Assembly: GCA_965223545.1 (NCBI GenBank)
Contig: OZ245006.1
Span: 6,816,001-6,880,000, forward strand
Source: Planctomycetota bacterium
Lineage (GTDB): Bacteria > Planctomycetota > UBA1135 > UBA2386
Direction: 5' to 3'
DNA: 64,000 bases
Shown: positions 29,035 through 36,167 of the stretch, one piece after another
How positions within the stretch are numbered: position 1 is the first letter of the stretch
Layout: the number at the start of each line of letters is the position of its first letter
The notes under the pieces: model-generated
The model's input: the letters and a program-made list of their open reading frames with translations, nothing else
What the model was told of the DNA's origin: nothing
Databases searched by the model: none
Program-made: the position numbers and the translations under genes

Positions 29035-31248
29035 TCACTCGCCGATCACCAGGTCGACTGCGTTGGTCAGAGAGAGGCCAGACCTCGCAGCGGCGAGCAG
29101 CAGGGCCTGGCTGTAGAGCGGCTGTCCGAACAGGCTGGTCGAGACTGACACCGGGAGCGGGAACGTTGCGAACCCGGAGGCGTTGACTTGCGCGGGCGAT
29201 GTGTCGAGCAGCTGGCCGGGATCAACCAAGAGCAGACAGACGTCGTTGAACGGATGCGTGGCTGGCGCCCGTGACAGCAGCAGGGTCGCAGTACTGCCGC
29301 GCGTGCCCCCATGTACGTCCAGTGCAAACGACGGGTTGCCGATCGTCGGCCGGCCGAAAGCGTGCAGGGTCGGCGGGGTGGTCGACCGGGCGCAGCCGCG
29401 TCCACGCTGCGCGATCGCGGCGGCCGTGGTCGCCGCGTAGATCCAGGTGTCGGAGAGCAACGAGGGGGTGCCGGTGAAGCTACCGCCAAACAGCATCAAC
29501 CGGCCCCGCCCACGGTCGTAAGCCATGCTGTGTTGGTTTCGCGCGGGCGGGGAGGTCGCCGGGACGTGTGCCGTCCACACGGTGCCGTCCCATTCCCACG
29601 TGTCGTTCAGGTTGGAGCCGTTGGCGTGACCGCCGAACAGCACGACGCGCTCGATCGACGGGTCGTAGACCATGTCGAGACAGCACCGCGGCGACGGGTC
29701 GGGGCCGGTTGCCCGCTGGAGCCAAGTTGTGCCGTCCCATTCCCAGGTGTCGCCCAGCTTCTGCACCCTTCGGTCGTTGCCGCCGAAGATGACGACGCGC
29801 TGCCGCGAGGCATCGTACGCCATCGCGTGGTCGAAACGGGCCGGGGGAGATGACTGCGGCGTGCGCCGAGTCCAGGTCGTACCGTCCCACTCCCAGGTGT
29901 TGTTGGTCGCGTTGAACCCGCCGGTGCGTCCACCGAACAACACGACCCGCGCTCGCGCGGCGTCGTACACCATCGTGTGGTCCGAGAGACGGCCGGGCCA
30001 GGTTGGTGGACTCAGCTGGGACCATTGAGTGCCGTCCCACTCCCAGGTGTCGTCGATCGTGAAAGACGAAGTGTCGACTCCGCCGAACAGAACAATGCGC
30101 TGGCGCGCCTCGTCGTAGGCCATGGCGTGGGCCATTCGAACGGGCGGCTGCCGGCTGGGCTGGAGGCGCCACCAGCGGAGCCCGTCCCACGACCAGGTGT
30201 CGTTCTTGAACGAACCACCGAAGAGCACGATCCGGTCACTTGCCGTCGAGTACGCCATCGCGTGTCCCGAGCGGCCATTCGGGCTCGGAAAGGTCGCCGG
30301 AGTCCACGTGCGACCGTCGTACTCCCAAGTGTCCGACAACCAGCCTGCGGCGCCGCCACCGCAGAGTACGACACGCTGACGCGCAGCGTCGTAGACCATC
30401 GCCTGCGCCGACCGGCCGGACGGTGCGACGGCCGGGGATTGCTGCGTCCAGGTGGAGCCGTCGTACTCCCACGTATCGGCGAGGGCAGTCCCAGCAAAGC
30501 CACTACTGCGGCCGCCGAACAGCACCACGCGTCGCCGCGTGCTGTCGTAGGTCATGCTGAAGTAGCCGCGCGCGGCCGGTGTCGTCGACCCACCGACCTG
30601 CGTCCACGCGACGCCGTCCCACTCCCAGGTGTCGCCCAGCCCGTTGAGCGAAGCGTCGATACCGCCAAACAGAACGATCCGCTGGCGGTTCTCATCGTAG
30701 ACGAGCTGGTGGTAGCCGCGCGCAGGCGGACCCTGTGCCGCCAGCGCCCGCGTCCAGTTGGTGCCGTCCCACTCCCAGGTTTCTTCGACCGTGCTGCCGG
30801 TGTCACGGCCGCCGAACAACACGACGCGTTGTCGGGCGGCGTCGTAGGCCATGGCGTGCTGCCAGTAGATGGACGGAGATTGCGGGGGGTTGCGTTGCTG
30901 CCAAGCCACGCCGTCCCATTCCCACGTCTGCTGTTCTCCGTACAAGACGACCCGCCGGCGCGCCGAGTCGTAAGTCAAGGCGTAGTAGAACGTCTGTGGC
31001 ACGTTTGGCGAGAGTCGCTCGGTCCACGTCCGCCCGTCCCACTCCCAGGTCTCGTGCAGATTGAAGGAGCTGTCGAACAAGACGGTGCGTTGACGAGCGG
31101 AGTCGTACGCCATGGCACTCGTGGTGCGCAGCCGGGGCTTCTCCACCCACGTGGCCTGGGCGTGCAGGAGCGTTCCACCGAGAGCGAGCGCCGTCCCGGC
31201 CATGAGCCCGAAAGGGCTTCGAAAACGGAAGGGGGCTAGACGGGCCAA
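29035..31248 (-). CDS. Secreted kelch-repeat (DTWEWDG) beta-propeller protein with shared C-terminal domain
   Basis: About 12 repeats of HAMAYD..RQRVVLFGG...DTWEWDG; AGGAG RBS 6 nt before TTG 31248. Confidence 0.92.
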   Translation of the reverse strand: MARLAPFRFRSPFGLMAGTALALGGTLLHAQATWVEKPRLRTTSAMAYDSARQRTVLFDSSFNLHETWEWDGRTWTERLSPNVPQTFYYALTYDSARRRVVLYGEQQTWEWDGVAWQQRNPPQSPSIYWQHAMAYDAARQRVVLFGGRDTGSTVEETWEWDGTNWTRALAAQGPPARGYHQLVYDENRQRIVLFGGIDASLNGLGDTWEWDGVAWTQVGGSTTPAARGYFSMTYDSTRRRVVLFGGRSSGFAGTALADTWEYDGSTWTQQSPAVAPSGRSAQAMVYDAARQRVVLCGGGAAGWLSDTWEYDGRTWTPATFPSPNGRSGHAMAYSTASDRIVLFGGSFKNDTWSWDGLRWWRLQPSRQPPVRMAHAMAYDEARQRIVLFGGVDTSSFTIDDTWEWDGTQWSQLSPPTWPGRLSDHTMVYDAARARVVLFGGRTGGFNATNNTWEWDGTTWTRRTPQSSPPARFDHAMAYDASRQRVVIFGGNDRRVQKLGDTWEWDGTTWLQRATGPDPSPRCCLDMVYDPSIERVVLFGGHANGSNLNDTWEWDGTVWTAHVPATSPPARNQHSMAYDRGRGRLMLFGGSFTGTPSLLSDTWIYAATTAAAIAQRGRGCARSTTPPTLHAFGRPTIGNPSFALDVHGGTRGSTATLLLSRAPATHPFNDVCLLLVDPGQLLDTSPAQVNASGFATFPLPVSVSTSLFGQPLYSQALLLAAARSGLSLTNAVDLVIGE

Positions 31249-31322
31249 CGAGGTCTCCTTGGTTGCGTGCCACACCAAGATATCAGGTTCATGCGAACCG
31301 GTGGTGATGGCGGCCGAGTTGT

Positions 31323-31540
31323 CTCAGCGCGGCCACGGCCGCAACCAAACTCGGATGCCGCTCTCGCCAGAGCGGTTTGGAAGGTCCGACCCATCCGCCG
31401 CCGCGCTGAGCCAGGAGGCACTGTCTCTCCGAGCCTCCGGCGCGGCGGCATTGTCGCCATGGCAGCGACGTCGCCTCGAAAATGTTGTCGCAGCTCGACG
31501 ACTCGAGGCGCCGGAGGCTCAGCGCGGCCGAGGCCGCAAC
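31323..31540 (+). repeat. Double-hairpin repeat, locus 3, left part (interrupted by IS110 no. 1)
   Basis: Module A, linker, module B and the start of the next module A ending GGCCGCAAC. Confidence 0.9.
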
Positions 31541-31569
31541 GGTATGTGTGGTTCCATGATCTGCGAAGC

Positions 31570-31845
31570 TAGAGTTCTCCACACCCGTCGCGCCGTAGCG
31601 GTGTGGAAGACTCGCGCGATGGTGCAGCCGCAGGAGTCGTGTCGGGAGTCTGGTCATCGGCCGCAAGAGAGCTTAGGGTCCCCCGGCGTGCGACGGAGAG
31701 GTTTCGCGATCTGCCGCAATGGTGGCGCTTCGAGCGGCCCCTCATTTGGTTCTGCGACTCTCCTCCCGCGTGGGGGACCCGATTTAGGAGATTGGCGGCG
31801 TGAGAAATCACGGCCCCGAAACACGAACCGTTTTGGCGACTCGCC
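31570..31845 (+). ncRNA. Predicted bridge RNA of IS110 no. 1
   Basis: 5' hairpin; target loop with GCCGCAA (31713-31719) and TTTGGTT (31745-31751); donor loop with TTAGGAGAT (31784-31792) and ACCGTT (31827-31832). RNA ends are approximate. Confidence 0.75.
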
Positions 31846-31914
31846 TCCTCAGGCGGACTGCGCGGGTAGGGAGAGTCCTCTCGTCGACACTCACTCGTTG
31901 AACATGGAGGGGAC

Positions 31915-33417
31915 ATGAATCGATTCGTTGGATTGGATCTCGGCTTGAGGAGCAAGCACCGAGCCGTCGTTCTGGATGGTGCGAAGTCTCGGGGCAGACC
32001 GTTTTCAGTCGAGAACAGCCGTGAGGGTATTGACCTTCTGCTGCGCCGTGCACAGGAAGGTGCCGAGGGTCCGGTGAGCTTCGTGATGGAACCAACGGGG
32101 TTGGCGTGGCTGCCCATCGCGGCGCACGTGAACGCCGCAGGGTTCCAGATCTACGTGAGCAAACCACAGAAGCTGAGCGACCTGCGGAAGTTCTATAGCA
32201 AGCACACCAAAACCGACGTAGTAGACGCCGAGGCCGCTGCGCGTCTGCCGCAGATGGATCCAAAGGGCGTCCACCAGCTGCGTGTTCCAACTGCCGACGA
32301 GACGACGATCCGTCGACTCGTGAAGCGGCGTGAGCGGTTGGCGCGCGAGCTCAGCGACCACAAGCGTCGTGTGCACGCGATACTGGTACTGGCGAATCCC
32401 AGCCTCATGAAGGCCTTGGGGGCAGAGAAGTTCAGTGCCGCTAAGATGGGGTTTCTGCGGCGCTACGTCGATCCGGTGAAAGCGGTCGGCCTTGGGAAGA
32501 GTCGCTTGGAGCGCTTCTTGACGAAGCGATCCAAGGGAACGCATGACCCGTGCTTGGTCGACCGCGTGCTCGAGTCCTGCCGACAGGCCGCCGAGTACTA
32601 CGCTGAGCTGCGAGCTGCGGGGCAGATGCCGTTCGACTACGAGGCCATCCAAGAGGATGTGGTGTACGAGCTGGATGAGATCGAGCGCAAGAACACGGAC
32701 GTTCGCAAGCTCGACGCAAAGATCAAGAAGCTCTACCTGGGCGTCGATCCTGACCGAACACTCGAGCAACTGCGCGGCGTCGGTCCCACGATCGCTGCGG
32801 CCATCGAAGCCTTGGTAGGCGACATCGCGCGGTTCTCGAACGGCAAGAAGTTCGTGAGCTACTGCGGACTGTGTCCACGCCGGAAGCAGACGGGCATGAG
32901 CGACCCCTCGATGCCAATCACCAAAACCGGCCAACGAGTACTCAAGAAGTACCTCTACCTAGCAGCTGACGTCGCTCGCCAGTGGGATCCGGATTTCGCG
33001 GCGTACTACGCTCGCCGCTACGCCGCAGGTGATCACCACAACCTCATCCTCATCGCATTGGCTGGCAAGATGGCGCGCCGCGTCTACGCCCTCCTGAAGC
33101 GTCGCGACAGCCAGCGCGCCGATGACAAGCCGGCGTCGACGCAAGTCCGCTACGTCCTGCGAGACGCCGACGGCAACGAGCTCACGAAGGTTGCCGCGCG
33201 CGCGCTCATCGCAGCCAAGTTCACGCGCAGCATCGTCGCGCCACAGCGGCATGAGCGCGACCAACGGCGACAGGGACGAGTGGGGACTCCGACGACGAGG
33301 GACTTGAGTGGCCGCCCAATGGACGCCACAGGCCTGGCCGTGGAATCCCCACGTCAACCTCACCCGATCGGTGATCTCATGCAAGAACACTTCCCTGGTC
33401 TTGTGGAAGAGTCCTGA
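31915..33417 (+). CDS. IS110 family transposase/recombinase (500 aa)
   Basis: GLDLG, MEPTG, KTDVVDA (DEDD RuvC-like); LRGVGP, SYCGLCP, ALAGKMARRVY; GGAGG RBS. Confidence 0.97.
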   Translation: MNRFVGLDLGLRSKHRAVVLDGAKSRGRPFSVENSREGIDLLLRRAQEGAEGPVSFVMEPTGLAWLPIAAHVNAAGFQIYVSKPQKLSDLRKFYSKHTKTDVVDAEAAARLPQMDPKGVHQLRVPTADETTIRRLVKRRERLARELSDHKRRVHAILVLANPSLMKALGAEKFSAAKMGFLRRYVDPVKAVGLGKSRLERFLTKRSKGTHDPCLVDRVLESCRQAAEYYAELRAAGQMPFDYEAIQEDVVYELDEIERKNTDVRKLDAKIKKLYLGVDPDRTLEQLRGVGPTIAAAIEALVGDIARFSNGKKFVSYCGLCPRRKQTGMSDPSMPITKTGQRVLKKYLYLAADVARQWDPDFAAYYARRYAAGDHHNLILIALAGKMARRVYALLKRRDSQRADDKPASTQVRYVLRDADGNELTKVAARALIAAKFTRSIVAPQRHERDQRRQGRVGTPTTRDLSGRPMDATGLAVESPRQPHPIGDLMQEHFPGLVEES

Positions 33418-33480
33418 ACAAGCCGTGCACACGCGATGTCGAGCCCCAGCGAAAACCCCTTGACATGACTTAGGAGATAT

Positions 33481-33573
33481 CAAACACGGAGCGTTCCGCG
33501 ACCCGAGCGTGGGTTGCAGGTCCCGCGGTCGCCGGCGGCCGCGCTGAGCCCGGAGGCCAGTGTTGTCTTCGAG
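33481..33573 (+). repeat. Double-hairpin repeat, locus 3, middle part between the two IS elements
   Basis: CAAACACGGAGCGTTCCGCGACCCG...GCGCTGAGCC...TGTTGTCTTCGAG continues the interrupted unit. Confidence 0.92.
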
Positions 33574-33649
33574 ATGGGATGAGAGGGTCGATCCCTCCGA
33601 CGCAGTCGCCACACAATGGCGCTGCAAAATCAAAGGAGCAGATCGACCC

Positions 33650-34726
33650 ATGACCAAAGTTACCGCTCAGACCTCCCCCGTGACCATCGGTCTCGACATT
33701 GGCGATCGGAACATCCACTACTGCGCACTGGACGCGTCGCGGACGGTCGTTGCGCGGGGCAGTTTCCCGACGACGCCGACAGCGCTCTCGAAGGCGCTGA
33801 GCGACTTCCCGGGCGCCAGAGTCGCTCTCGAGGCCGGCTCGCAGTCGGCCTGGATGTCTCGGCGGTTGCGCTCGGAGGGCTACGACGTTCACGTCGTGGA
33901 CCCGCGCCGAGTGCAGCTGATCGCCAAGGATCCTCGCAAGACCGACCGGCGCGATGCCGAGACCCTGGCTCGCCTGGAGGCAGGGATGCCCGAGTTGCTC
34001 GGCACGATCCACCACCGCAGCGAGCAGGCACAGGCCGACCTGTCGGTCATTCGTGCGCGCGACCTGCTGGTGAGGATGCGGACGATGGCAGTGCAGCAGG
34101 TCCGGAGCCTGGCGAAGGGCTTCGGCGTCCGGCTGCCGTCGGCATCGACCGCGGCGTTCCCGAAGCGAGCTCGCGAGTCCATGCCGGTCCTGCTACTCAC
34201 TGCGGCGGAGCCGCTGCTGGACTTGATCGCCGACCTGTCCCGCCGGATCGACGAGCTCGACAAGGCGCTCGTCGAGGCGAGCCGCGAGCGATACCCCGAG
34301 GTCGCCGTCGTGCAGCAAGTCAACGGCGTGGGGCCGGTCACAGCGACCGCGTTCGTGCTGACGATCGAGGATCCGACACGATTCGCCGAAAGCCGCCGCG
34401 TGGGCTCCTGGCTCGGCTTGTGCCCAAAGAGCTTCGCGTCGGGCGACAGCAATCCGGAGCTGTCGATCAGCAAGGCTGGCGACGGCTATCTGAGACGGCT
34501 TCTGGTGCAGTGTGCGCACTACATCCTCGGCCCGTTCGGCAAGGACTGTGACCTCCGGCGCTTCGGGCAACGCCTGATCGCCCGCGGCGGCCGCGGCGCG
34601 AGGAAACGCGCGGCGGTCGCGGTTGCCCGCAAGCTCGCGCTACTGCTGCATCGGCTGTGGCGTCATGGCTTGGTCTACGACCCACTCCACAACAGCGACC
34701 GCGTAGCTGCCCACACCGCGGTATGA
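33650..34726 (+). CDS. IS110/IS1111 family transposase (358 aa)
   Basis: IGLDIG, ALEAG, KTDRRDA, VNGVGP, WLGLCP..ASG, ISKAG, AVARKL; AAAGGAG RBS. Confidence 0.97.
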   Translation: MTKVTAQTSPVTIGLDIGDRNIHYCALDASRTVVARGSFPTTPTALSKALSDFPGARVALEAGSQSAWMSRRLRSEGYDVHVVDPRRVQLIAKDPRKTDRRDAETLARLEAGMPELLGTIHHRSEQAQADLSVIRARDLLVRMRTMAVQQVRSLAKGFGVRLPSASTAAFPKRARESMPVLLLTAAEPLLDLIADLSRRIDELDKALVEASRERYPEVAVVQQVNGVGPVTATAFVLTIEDPTRFAESRRVGSWLGLCPKSFASGDSNPELSISKAGDGYLRRLLVQCAHYILGPFGKDCDLRRFGQRLIARGGRGARKRAAVAVARKLALLLHRLWRHGLVYDPLHNSDRVAAHTAV

Positions 34727-34809
34727 CCCAACCATGATCGCCCCACCCCCAACCAACCGAATACCGTGGAGGAACCTGGCGTGATGCCGCTCCTGCACTG
34801 CTGAAGACT

Positions 34810-34960
34810 CACCGCCCGATCCCGGCGACAGCGACCGGAGGCTTGGCCCTCGAGGCCGTTATCGAGAAAGCTGCGCCGGGTCGGACGGATCTCATCGTGC
34901 ACCGGTCTCGGACGAGGCCATCAGAGTGCGTATGGAAGCCTGCGGAGTCCGAAGCTTGTC
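34810..34960 (+). ncRNA. Predicted seek/bridge RNA of IS1111-type element
   Basis: Stem-enclosed loop with CCGGAGGCT (34835-34843, complement of target AGCCTCCGG) and TCGAG (34862-34866); ATGGAAG (34932-34938) matches the element right end plus core. RNA ends are approximate. Confidence 0.72.
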
Positions 34961-35047
34961 GCGCAGGGCGGCGCCAAGGCGCCCAGATTCTCAAGAAGAA
35001 CAGATCCACAGACAAAGAGCTGTTGACGGGATCGCCCCTCTCATGGA

Positions 35048-35343
35048 AGCCTCCGGGAGTTGCGGTATCGAAGTCCCGGCGACGACAGGCCTTCCGAAAG
35101 GTTGTTGCCGCTCGAACATTCTCGGACCCGGAGGCTCAGCGCGGCCGAGGCCGCAACCAAGAACGGAGTATTCCGCGACCCGAGCATCGGCCGCGGGTCC
35201 GGCGGTCGCCGGCGGCCGCGCTGAGCCCAGAGGCCAGTGTTGTCTTCGAGCCTCCGGGAGCCGCGTTGTCGAAGTTCCAGCGGCATCGAGCCTTCCGAAA
35301 GGTTTTCGCCGCGCGAAGATTTGCGGACCCGGAGGCTCAGCGC
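35048..35343 (+). repeat. Double-hairpin repeat, locus 3, right part (B-A-B)
   Basis: AGCCTCCGGGAG... resumes the unit; near-identical to 56343-56752. Confidence 0.92.
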
Positions 35344-36167
35344 ATCAGCGGGCTGGCCTGCGCGAAGGTCCAGCGGTTGCCTTCGGGATCGGCGGCCTCG
35401 TAGGCGCGGAAGCCGTGCTGGTGGATGTCTTTGATGATCTCTGCGCCGTGCGCTTTGGCGTGTGCGAAGTGTGCGTCGAGGTCGGCGACGTGGATGAACG
35501 GTGTGTGGGTGATTGGCGTGTCCGCGACGGCGGTGGCTTCGCGGCCGCAGAGGATGATCGCGCCATTCCCGATGCGGAACTCGATCCAGCTGTGGCTCGG
35601 GTCGTTGGGCTCGACTTCGGGGACGCTGTTTGCGGGCTCGAAGCCGAAGACATCGCGCAGCCAGCGCCCGGCGGCTGCGGGCTCGGCGTAGTGGACGACG
35701 ACGGCGAGCCGCGCCAGGGGCAACGGCTCAGGGGGGACGTGATCGCGCTTTTGGATCCAGTCGTTCAGCCAGACCGGGCTCATCCGTACCCATGCCGTTC
35801 CGCCCTTGTCCTCGCCGCCGTCCGGGATCGTGGCCTGCACGTTCACCTCCGTGCCGCCCGCGCTCATCTCGAAGCGAACGTCGATCTCGACGTCGTCCAA
35901 AGAGCTCGTCCACGCAACCCGCTTGCCTGGCTCCCAGACGGTGATGCGCGCGAGCTCGAGGCCGTCGCCCGTCTCCTCGTCGTAGACCTCGACGATCCGA
36001 CCGCCGACTCCGGGCTCCATCCGCATGTAGTACGCCCGAGCGGTGTCGAAGAAGTTGATCGGGCCCTGGATCCACCAGCGGTCGAGCTCCTTCGTAAAGA
36101 CCTCGAAGGCGGTGGCGGGATCGACGGCGACCTCGATCGATGAGTTCACTGTGCGGGGAGTGGTCAC
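35337..36167 (-). CDS. SRPBCC/AHSA1 (START) domain fused to a VOC domain
   Basis: AFEVFT.ELDRWW, WEPGKRV, then WLRDVFGF...ADPEGNRWTF; GTGA overlap with arsR. Confidence 0.85.
   Translation of the reverse strand: MTTPRTVNSSIEVAVDPATAFEVFTKELDRWWIQGPINFFDTARAYYMRMEPGVGGRIVEVYDEETGDGLELARITVWEPGKRVAWTSSLDDVEIDVRFEMSAGGTEVNVQATIPDGGEDKGGTAWVRMSPVWLNDWIQKRDHVPPEPLPLARLAVVVHYAEPAAAGRWLRDVFGFEPANSVPEVEPNDPSHSWIEFRIGNGAIILCGREATAVADTPITHTPFIHVADLDAHFAHAKAHGAEIIKDIHQHGFRAYEAADPEGNRWTFAQASPLMR

Follow-up and report, generated by a model that had tools for sequence, protein, structure and literature searches.

The IS110 element and its surroundings

The window, that is the whole stretch of 64,000 nucleotides analysed here, carries on its forward strand at 31541-33480 an IS110 element of 1,940 bp. 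Its recombinase gene (31915-33417, forward strand) encodes a protein of 500 aa with the PF01548 and PF02371 domains. The C-terminal Tnp domain (PF02371) was matched with an E-value of 4e-21, the NF033542 model scored 208.7 bits against a cut-off of 140, and membership of the IS110 family was matched at E 1.9e-24. The DEDD residues D8, E59, D101 and D104 are conserved, and the AlphaFold model (pLDDT 84) has ISCro4 and IS621 as its nearest folds in a Foldseek search. At the position of Ser241 of IS621 the protein has a threonine, Thr326; in 103 homologues this position is occupied by Ser (58) or Thr (45), and by nothing else. Thr326 is probably the catalytic residue for the top-strand cut, as judged from this alignment. 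The recombinase also has a C-terminal extension of ~100 aa that is missing from IS621. This extension (33111-33417, residues about 400-500) consists of a conserved strand and helices at residues 425-455, followed by a low-confidence tail.

The left end of the element is 374 nt long and holds the RNA described below, and the right end is 61 nt long, an organization that fits the IS110 group and not the IS1111 group. No long sub-terminal inverted repeats were evident by eye at the element ends. The element belongs to the IS110 family and the IS110 group, and is predicted to work like IS621.

The genome contains 11 copies of the element, with 100% identity across the 1,940 bp. In sequencing run X2 the element was recovered as a single contig (corresponding to 31533-33485) at a depth of about ten times that of single-copy sequence. 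The contigs of public runs, of which X2 and X3 come from one study that is possibly the window's own source, reproduce the element without differences and with the same junctions, no other letter being listed there, although contigs lose rare variants. A circle joint was absent from the contigs listed for four DNA runs, which is uninformative given this loss of rare forms, and no RNA run was listed as containing the stretch.

Most of the 11 copies are hosted by a REP-like palindromic repeat, whose left arm occurs 171 times in the genome (with at most 2 substitutions) and whose pattern was present in 1 of 100 relatives. At our locus the left arm of the target-bearing repeat lies at 31518-31529 on the forward strand, and pairs with 33537-33548 in the rejoined empty site. 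The flanks of the 11 copies are constant from -8 to -1 and from +1 to +4 and variable beyond, a span identical to that of the two target guides of the RNA. In two insertions (G000 C1 5137697 and 7273463) the full left repeat arm is missing, and in one of them both arms are missing, while the 12-bp target is kept. It therefore seems, from these sequences, that the insertion site is set by the guide match rather than by the hairpin. Repeats with CAAA were filled in 9 of 110 cases and variant repeats in 0 of 38, a difference short of significance (p 0.11).

A second element of the IS110 family lies at 33574-35049 (approximate ends), occurs in 4 copies and occupies another position in the same repeat family. 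Sub-terminal inverted repeats, a long right end and what seems to be an AG at either end make it look like an IS1111-type element. Another IS-like insertion splits one of its copies, which also has its right end duplicated. The genome has fourteen matches to PF01797 (Y1_Tnp). A gene for a 747-aa kelch-repeat protein (29035-31278, reverse strand) adjoins the repeat cluster, with no sign of a link to the element.

A probable bridge RNA in the left end

A bridge RNA is expected in the left end of this element, since 85.7% of IS110-group elements are given one there in PMC11208160. The initial annotation, made from the letters alone, had read such an RNA at this place, with the 5' hairpin, target loop and donor loop in the order of IS621 and with four guide segments. 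This reading is supported: its motif positions are all correct, the four guides are real and lie where it had placed them, and the target guides covary with the flanks among homologues. The hairpin arms TCCACAC and GTGTGGA are found at 31578 and 31601, GGGTCCCC at 31676, GCTTCGAGC at 31727, GGGGACCC at 31773 and CGTGAGAAATCACG at 31799. The guide matches are GCCGCAA at 31713-31719, TTTGGTT at 31745-31751, TTAGGAGAT at 31784-31792 and ACACGAACCGTT at 31821-31832, the last agreeing at 10 of 12 bases with the reverse complement of 31538-31549. When the 374-nt left end was shuffled 5000 times with its dinucleotides preserved, GCCGCAA recurred in 76 shuffles, TTTGGTT in 55, TTAGGAGAT in 2 and the 5-nt core part of the fourth guide in 1596; the four matches in order recurred in none. 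The left end very likely encodes an IS110 bridge RNA of the IS621 type, with a 5' stem-loop and two internal loops in conserved stems.

All parts of this RNA and its targets are read on the forward strand. The left target guide (31712-31720) covers positions 1-9 of the target, with a mismatch at position 1 and a U-G wobble at position 9. The right target guide (31745-31752) is composed of UUUG (31745-31748), a core-pairing GU (31749-31750) and the handshake bases UC (31751-31752). In the donor loop the left guide (31784-31793) matches 33470-33478, its last U being unmatched at position 8; positions 1-7 of the left donor (33472-33478) are identical to guide bases 31786-31792. The right donor guide (31821-31833) has a 5' extension, followed by ACC (31827-31829), which pairs with GGT, a core-pairing GU (31830-31831) and the handshake bases UU (31832-31833). 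The right donor itself (31541-31548) begins with GGTAT, which is invariant in 14 aligned left ends, and includes a -10-like hexamer (31543-31548) of a predicted promoter at the circle junction. The left target occupies 31532-31538 (positions 1-7); 31533-31540 is invariant in 11 of 11 insertions and the bases further left vary. The right target, CAAA at 33481-33484 (positions 10-13), is likewise invariant in all 11, and the next base varies.

Folded as a single sequence, 31570-31860 reaches only moderate stability (z -2.2, equalled by 4 of 200 shuffles). This fold contains the 5' hairpin and the target-loop stems, leaves the target guides partly paired and lacks the donor loop, and forcing all guides open costs ~14 kcal/mol. 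The open guide loops are thus drawn from the comparative alignment and not from the single-sequence fold. In the comparative scaffold of 14 aligned left ends, where structure and pairing score come from the same alignment, 95.1% of cells are paired and two-sided changes are seen at 18 of 45 pairs (0 of 500 shuffles). The 5' stem-loop (31578-31607) is paired in 95.9% of cells, with a two-sided change at one pair. The target-binding loop with its closing stems (31695-31763; capping hairpin 31721-31741) has helices that are 90.5-98.2% paired and show two-sided changes. The donor-binding loop (31779-31836) is closed by a CCG/UGG helix (31779-31781 with 31834-31836) that is 100% paired and never varies, and its capping hairpin (31794-31817) is 93.8% paired, with two-sided changes at 5 of 8 pairs. 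The outer stem of the initial annotation is part of the minimum free energy structure, but only 75.5% of its cells pair over the 14 sequences, and its last three pairs compete with the invariant CCG/UGG helix; as a conserved helix the full 8-bp stem is doubtful, and that reading was rejected. An Rfam search over 31000-35500 found no matching family (a single chance match had E 0.98), and no linear promoter or terminator was found in 31400-31950.

The donor loop is followed by a conserved 3' extension (31837-31912; columns 335-361 of alignment A2). One part of it is complementary to the RNA's 5' side (93.5% paired, two-sided changes at 4 of 7 pairs), the next part resembles the target-loop stem's 5' arm, which it could displace, and a small hairpin near the ribosome-binding site comes after it. 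Judging from these pairings, the extension is possibly a switch between guide RNA and mRNA.

Homologous loci were taken from genomes (8) and metagenomes (80); of the 88 sequences with a match, the window counted, 33 were tabulated with scaffold anchors placed by hand. Loci with little upstream DNA, duplicates and distant groups with other scaffolds were left out, as were L020 and L043 (left end unreadable) and L069 (anchor failed). The right cut in homologues was placed 15 nt past the -35 hexamer and checked by the right-guide match. A close homologue was found neither in 100 relatives nor in 400 genomes of the phylum, nor in viral contigs, and plasmid matches had ~30% identity at best. The genome of L001 has one copy of its element only.

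The initial annotation had proposed covariation between the loops and their target or donor among homologues as a check, and the target loop passed it. The left target guide agreed with the flank at 174 of 217 bases over 31 distinct guide sets, against 95.0 +/- 6.4 after shuffling, with three registers allowed both here and in the shuffles. The right target guide agreed at 106 of 112 bases over the 28 elements with a right end (shuffled 34.3 +/- 6.0), and neither total was reached in 20000 permutations. The homologues are kin and not independent, though their targets differ widely; in a reduced set of 16 the counts were 95 of 112 for the left and 60 of 64 for the right guide, again with 0 of 20000 permutations. 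The target guides therefore change with their flanks across homologues. The donor loop passed only modestly, because donor ends vary little: position 10 covaries, the base of the right donor guide tracking the G or T with which the left end starts in 33 of 33 rows, but mismatches are present in several of the left donor guides. The position-9 base of the right donor guide equals the target base in 30 of 31 (shuffled 11.4).

Five homologues (L021, L023, L026, L034 and L035), whose recombinases are just 54-58% identical, share the left target CCGCAAC, and their left target guide has moved by one base within the loop. In another subgroup (L001, L037, L048, L049, L050 and L057) the element lies 6-7 nt downstream of a TANNNT hexamer (by eye in 6 of 7, L039 being the exception) and directly upstream of C-ATG or C-GTG (all 6 that have a right end), and its right end would supply an AGGAGA ribosome-binding site. 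The flanks of this subgroup look like promoters of leaderless mRNAs that serve as targets.

The handshake signal across homologues appears weak or absent, and the rule of IS621 does not seem to be clearly followed. In the donor loop 15 of 31 agree (shuffled 10.2; 334 of 20000 permutations), and in the target loop 14 of 28 pair to the donor and 16 of 28 to the target. By the IS621 rule the handshake bases of the present element give 2 pairs before exchange and 1 after, and insertion is not favoured.

Junctions and core dinucleotides

In 11 of 11 copies the left junction reads GCCGCA-AC|GGTAT and the right junction reads GAGAT-AT|CAAA. Empty sites of the form GCCGCA-AC-CAAA occur in 95 exact copies in the genome, versus 1 with T, which lies outside the repeat. 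Of 103 empty REP sites, 101 have C at position 9, 2 have A and none has T; GCCGCAATCAAA occurs once in the genome, outside the repeat, and the AC form of the right junction has 0 occurrences in the genome. The comparison of junctions with empty sites therefore indicates that exactly 1,940 bp were inserted and that no identical dinucleotide is repeated. Based on the 11 filled sites, the ~100 empty sites and a frame common to the homologues, the top-strand cut is placed after position 9, and the core is thus AC in the target (31539-31540, retained at the left junction) and AT in the donor (33479-33480). The AA-like core that had been suggested from the overlap of the target guides does not hold, as the same filled and empty sites and homologue frame place the cut after position 9. 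The imperfect fit of the right junction noticed at that time is a real mismatch (AT versus AC), of a kind fixed across a clade, and not noise. The rule of IS621 and ISCro4, by which one identical dinucleotide stands at both ends, is not followed by this element.

The empty-site evidence concerns the window's own element; cores of homologues were read from single filled loci, in which short metagenome contigs may join the flanks of different copies. Read in this way, cores are matched in 15 of the 28 elements with both ends (AT, AC, AG or GT) and unmatched in 13. In the unmatched set the right end is AT in 12 of 13, while the left is AC, GC, CC, GG, TG or CA. The two right guides have the same core bases in 31 of 31. 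In these 13 elements, guide base 9 pairs with the target base in 12 and with that of the donor in none; for guide base 8, the donor is paired in all 13 and the target in 5. As exceptions, L031 fits neither core and the left flank of L037 misses its own guide. Distant loci, examined by eye, have matched CT, CA or CC cores in 11 of 12, the right end being missing in one. A scan of viral sequences for empty sites of L024 gave 24 matches, mostly unrelated (GC 5, AT 0), which is too weak a result to build on; the energies of hairpins in rejoined targets were set aside, as they are confounded by GC content.

All 13 unmatched elements fall into one clade of 18 rows (SH-aLRT 96 in a quick tree with a midpoint root), which also has 4 matched elements and 1 incomplete one, and the sister clade of 10 rows has 9 matched and 1 incomplete. 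On these sequences the unmatched cores are a trait of the clade.

A proposed route for transposition and its relation to known systems

Taken together, the locus probably holds an active IS110-group element with a two-loop bridge RNA of the IS621 type that joins an AT donor to an AC target. According to the model that we propose, which follows the analogy of IS621 and CazIS110, the top strand would first be copied out as a circle, in which the right end (...AT) joins the left end (GGTAT...). The circle junction would build a TTGACA-17-TATGTG promoter for an RNA of ~280 nt starting near 31555. The complex of RNA and recombinase would then find GCCGCAAC|CAAA, and top strands would be cut after position 9 and swapped. 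Finally, the host would repair the product from the top strand, such that the target AC stays left and the donor AT goes right. Identical cores would not be required for this. Since the two right guides share one dinucleotide, the pairing given up in one loop during exchange would be regained in the other, and the core mismatch would thus be neutral for direction. Fixation of the top strand predicts AC left and AT right, as is seen in 11 of 11 copies (binomial p 0.001 if the copies are independent); bottom-strand exchange followed by unbiased repair would give mixed junctions. PMC11208158 also raises an exchange of both strands with repair directed by the top strand, which is compatible with the data as well. 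The junction pattern agrees with the IS621 cut after position 9 (PMC11208158), with the top-strand integration of CazIS110-1, reported to be favoured >1,300-fold (10.1101/2025.10.25.684509), and with the single-strand excision of IS621 that leaves a gap (10.64898/2026.08.31.748434).

The promoter at the circle junction is predicted from its pattern only: the rejoined ends give TTGACA, 17 nt and TATGTG, with a -10 that scores 3 of 6. The -35 hexamer TTGACA lies in the right end (33460-33465, forward strand), and a -35-like hexamer is found 15 nt before the right cut in 28 of 28 elements with a right end. TGn is an extended -10 motif, and one may speculate that the donor T9 is kept as the TGn of a weak promoter. 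In the 17 tabulated elements that start with GG, T9 gives TGn before a weak -10 (mean 3.5 of 6) in 15, with L036 and L031 lacking T9, while the -10 boxes of the 11 elements that start with TG are strong (5.3 of 6) and their cores match; these amount to about two independent points, namely two sister groups.

GGTAT, the first five bases of the element, was also found inserted exactly at the cut site in two REP copies, which differ in subtype. These footprints lie at G000 C1 +611325 and C1 -537464, and each corresponds to the element deleted between TAT 31543-31545 and TAT 33478-33480. Contigs of runs X2 and X3 contain this joint, at the depth of single-copy sequence. The simplest reading, although speculative, is faulty repair after copy-out, in which gap filling from the left cut would slip onto the right-end TAT; plain replication slippage is possible as well. 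In ISApl1, another copy-out element, microhomology scars near the length of the element have been described (10.1101/2023.06.07.543989). Deletions of 7 nt at the cut site (G000 C1 +597546 and -2551310) could be scars of the element on ACGG microhomology, and 4-nt deletions at the cut site of seven further REP copies could be plain slippage.

Other explanations of the unmatched ends have to be weighed against this route. The cores could match during the reaction itself if the circle took base 9 from the left (A-C) and the right T was made later by biased repair. A guide-encoded core composed of donor base 8 and target base 9 would match such a circle in 12 of 13 unmatched elements, and AC/AC and AG/AG elements do exist (L036 and L055). 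However, this would call for a change from C to T in 11 of 11 copies and from G to T in L001, L049 and L050, for which there is no known templating source, and the genome lacks a right junction with AC; we hold it to be quite improbable. Alternatively, an ordinary matched core may have been misread, the targets having had T9 (or an AA core), with the cut between positions 8 and 9 and the left C being part of the element. The left target guide indeed ends in a U that matches T9 perfectly, and the right donor guide matches base 9 of the left junction as it would a cognate donor base. Such a T-bearing target was rejected, as T9 was seen in none of the 103 REP copies and the lone GCCGCAATCAAA is outside the repeat. 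All 11 T-variants and no C-variant would need to have been filled, and the right target guide of homologues has G or C opposite T, with A in 0 of 13, which leaves this the least probable of the alternatives.

The element could also be an inactive relic in which Thr326 cannot replace Ser, its copies arising by conversion, by another recombinase acting in trans or as an effect of assembly. A Thr at a conserved catalytic position would fit this view, as would the second IS110-family element with 4 copies in the same repeat family. Yet the 11 copies are identical with distinct flanks, two of them outside a full repeat arm; independent contigs reproduce the element without differences; Thr is found in 45 of 103 homologues, in which only Ser or Thr occurs; and the second element has other ends and another target position. 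We consider a relic very improbable, slightly more so than cores that match in the reaction.

The preferred reading, an active element joining an AT donor to an AC target, leads to a broader proposal, to which we give about even chances. According to it, the clade has dropped the need for a shared core: the donor keeps AT, base 8 is free (A, G, C and T are seen) and base 9 is set by the right guides. The 11 of 11 copies and the two end-anchored footprints would then document, within the genome, how the top strand is copied out and pasted in via phosphothreonine in vivo. If true, one fixed donor could be aimed at almost any site, and since the cores differ, each natural insertion would record the strand that was inherited. 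A natural exception to the shared core, if working, would widen the targetable space, and unmatched-core joining could loosen a design limit of bridge-RNA genome editing. The element carries its own strand marker for the question of one- versus two-strand excision and insertion in IS110 elements, which a 2026 preprint calls unresolved.

Where cores are described in PMC11208160, PMC11208158, PMC13626964, PMC12288879, 10.1101/2025.05.14.653916, 10.64898/2026.03.19.712850 and 10.64898/2026.04.29.721476, they are identical at both ends, and according to a structural study of 2026 the core does not vary and is paired in every case. Designs for editing have been selected for identity of the two cores, and CT versus GT cores have been used to block cross-reaction. 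In a survey pipeline cores were defined as the repeated sequence and only concordant ones were kept, and elements with unmatched cores could therefore have been missed. The phrase 'core mismatch' in one paper concerns the bases next to the core. In the open literature we found no account of natural unmatched cores, of a Thr nucleophile or of such footprints. Unmatched ends may nevertheless have been known before. The ISEc21 seekRNA system, which also has an upstream non-coding RNA, is described as inserting without duplication, with one copy of any common bases assigned to the element (PMC11187229). The same source reports some cases without any duplication, so unmatched ends may be known there in other vocabulary.

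Among characterized systems, IS621 (PMC11208160, PMC11208158; PDB 8WT6-8WT9) is like the present element in many respects as described there: the DEDD and Tnp domains, the 7+2+4 target frame, a long left end in which a 5' hairpin is followed by the target and donor loops, a REP-type target, a left donor guide that falls one base short of the left target guide, and a left end that starts with two bases and TAT. It is among the best Foldseek matches, with an E-value of about 4e-11. The two differ in that identity is only ~21%, the IS621 recombinase has 326 aa versus 500 here, and Ser241 is replaced by Thr. The IS621 core is CT at both ends versus an AC target and AT donor here, and T9 is not fixed in the target of our element, which also has a longer left end (374 nt) and loops capped by a GGNGG..CCCC motif. 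ISCro4/IS622 (PDB 9T56; 10.1101/2025.05.14.653916) is the best sequence match in the PDB (E 9e-17) and the best fold match. It has the same loop order, but its cores are CT and only identical-core sites were paired in the work described. ISPpu9 and ISPpu10 (PMC12288879; 10.64898/2026.03.19.712850) are likewise IS110-group elements in REP palindromes, but have an identical AG or CT dinucleotide at both ends. Finally, CazIS110-1 (10.1101/2025.10.25.684509) has a main text that never uses the word 'core', so that its core state is not comparable from that text; it is described with about ten genomic copies, copy-out and top-strand insertion, a mode of transposition that would explain the junctions we observe.
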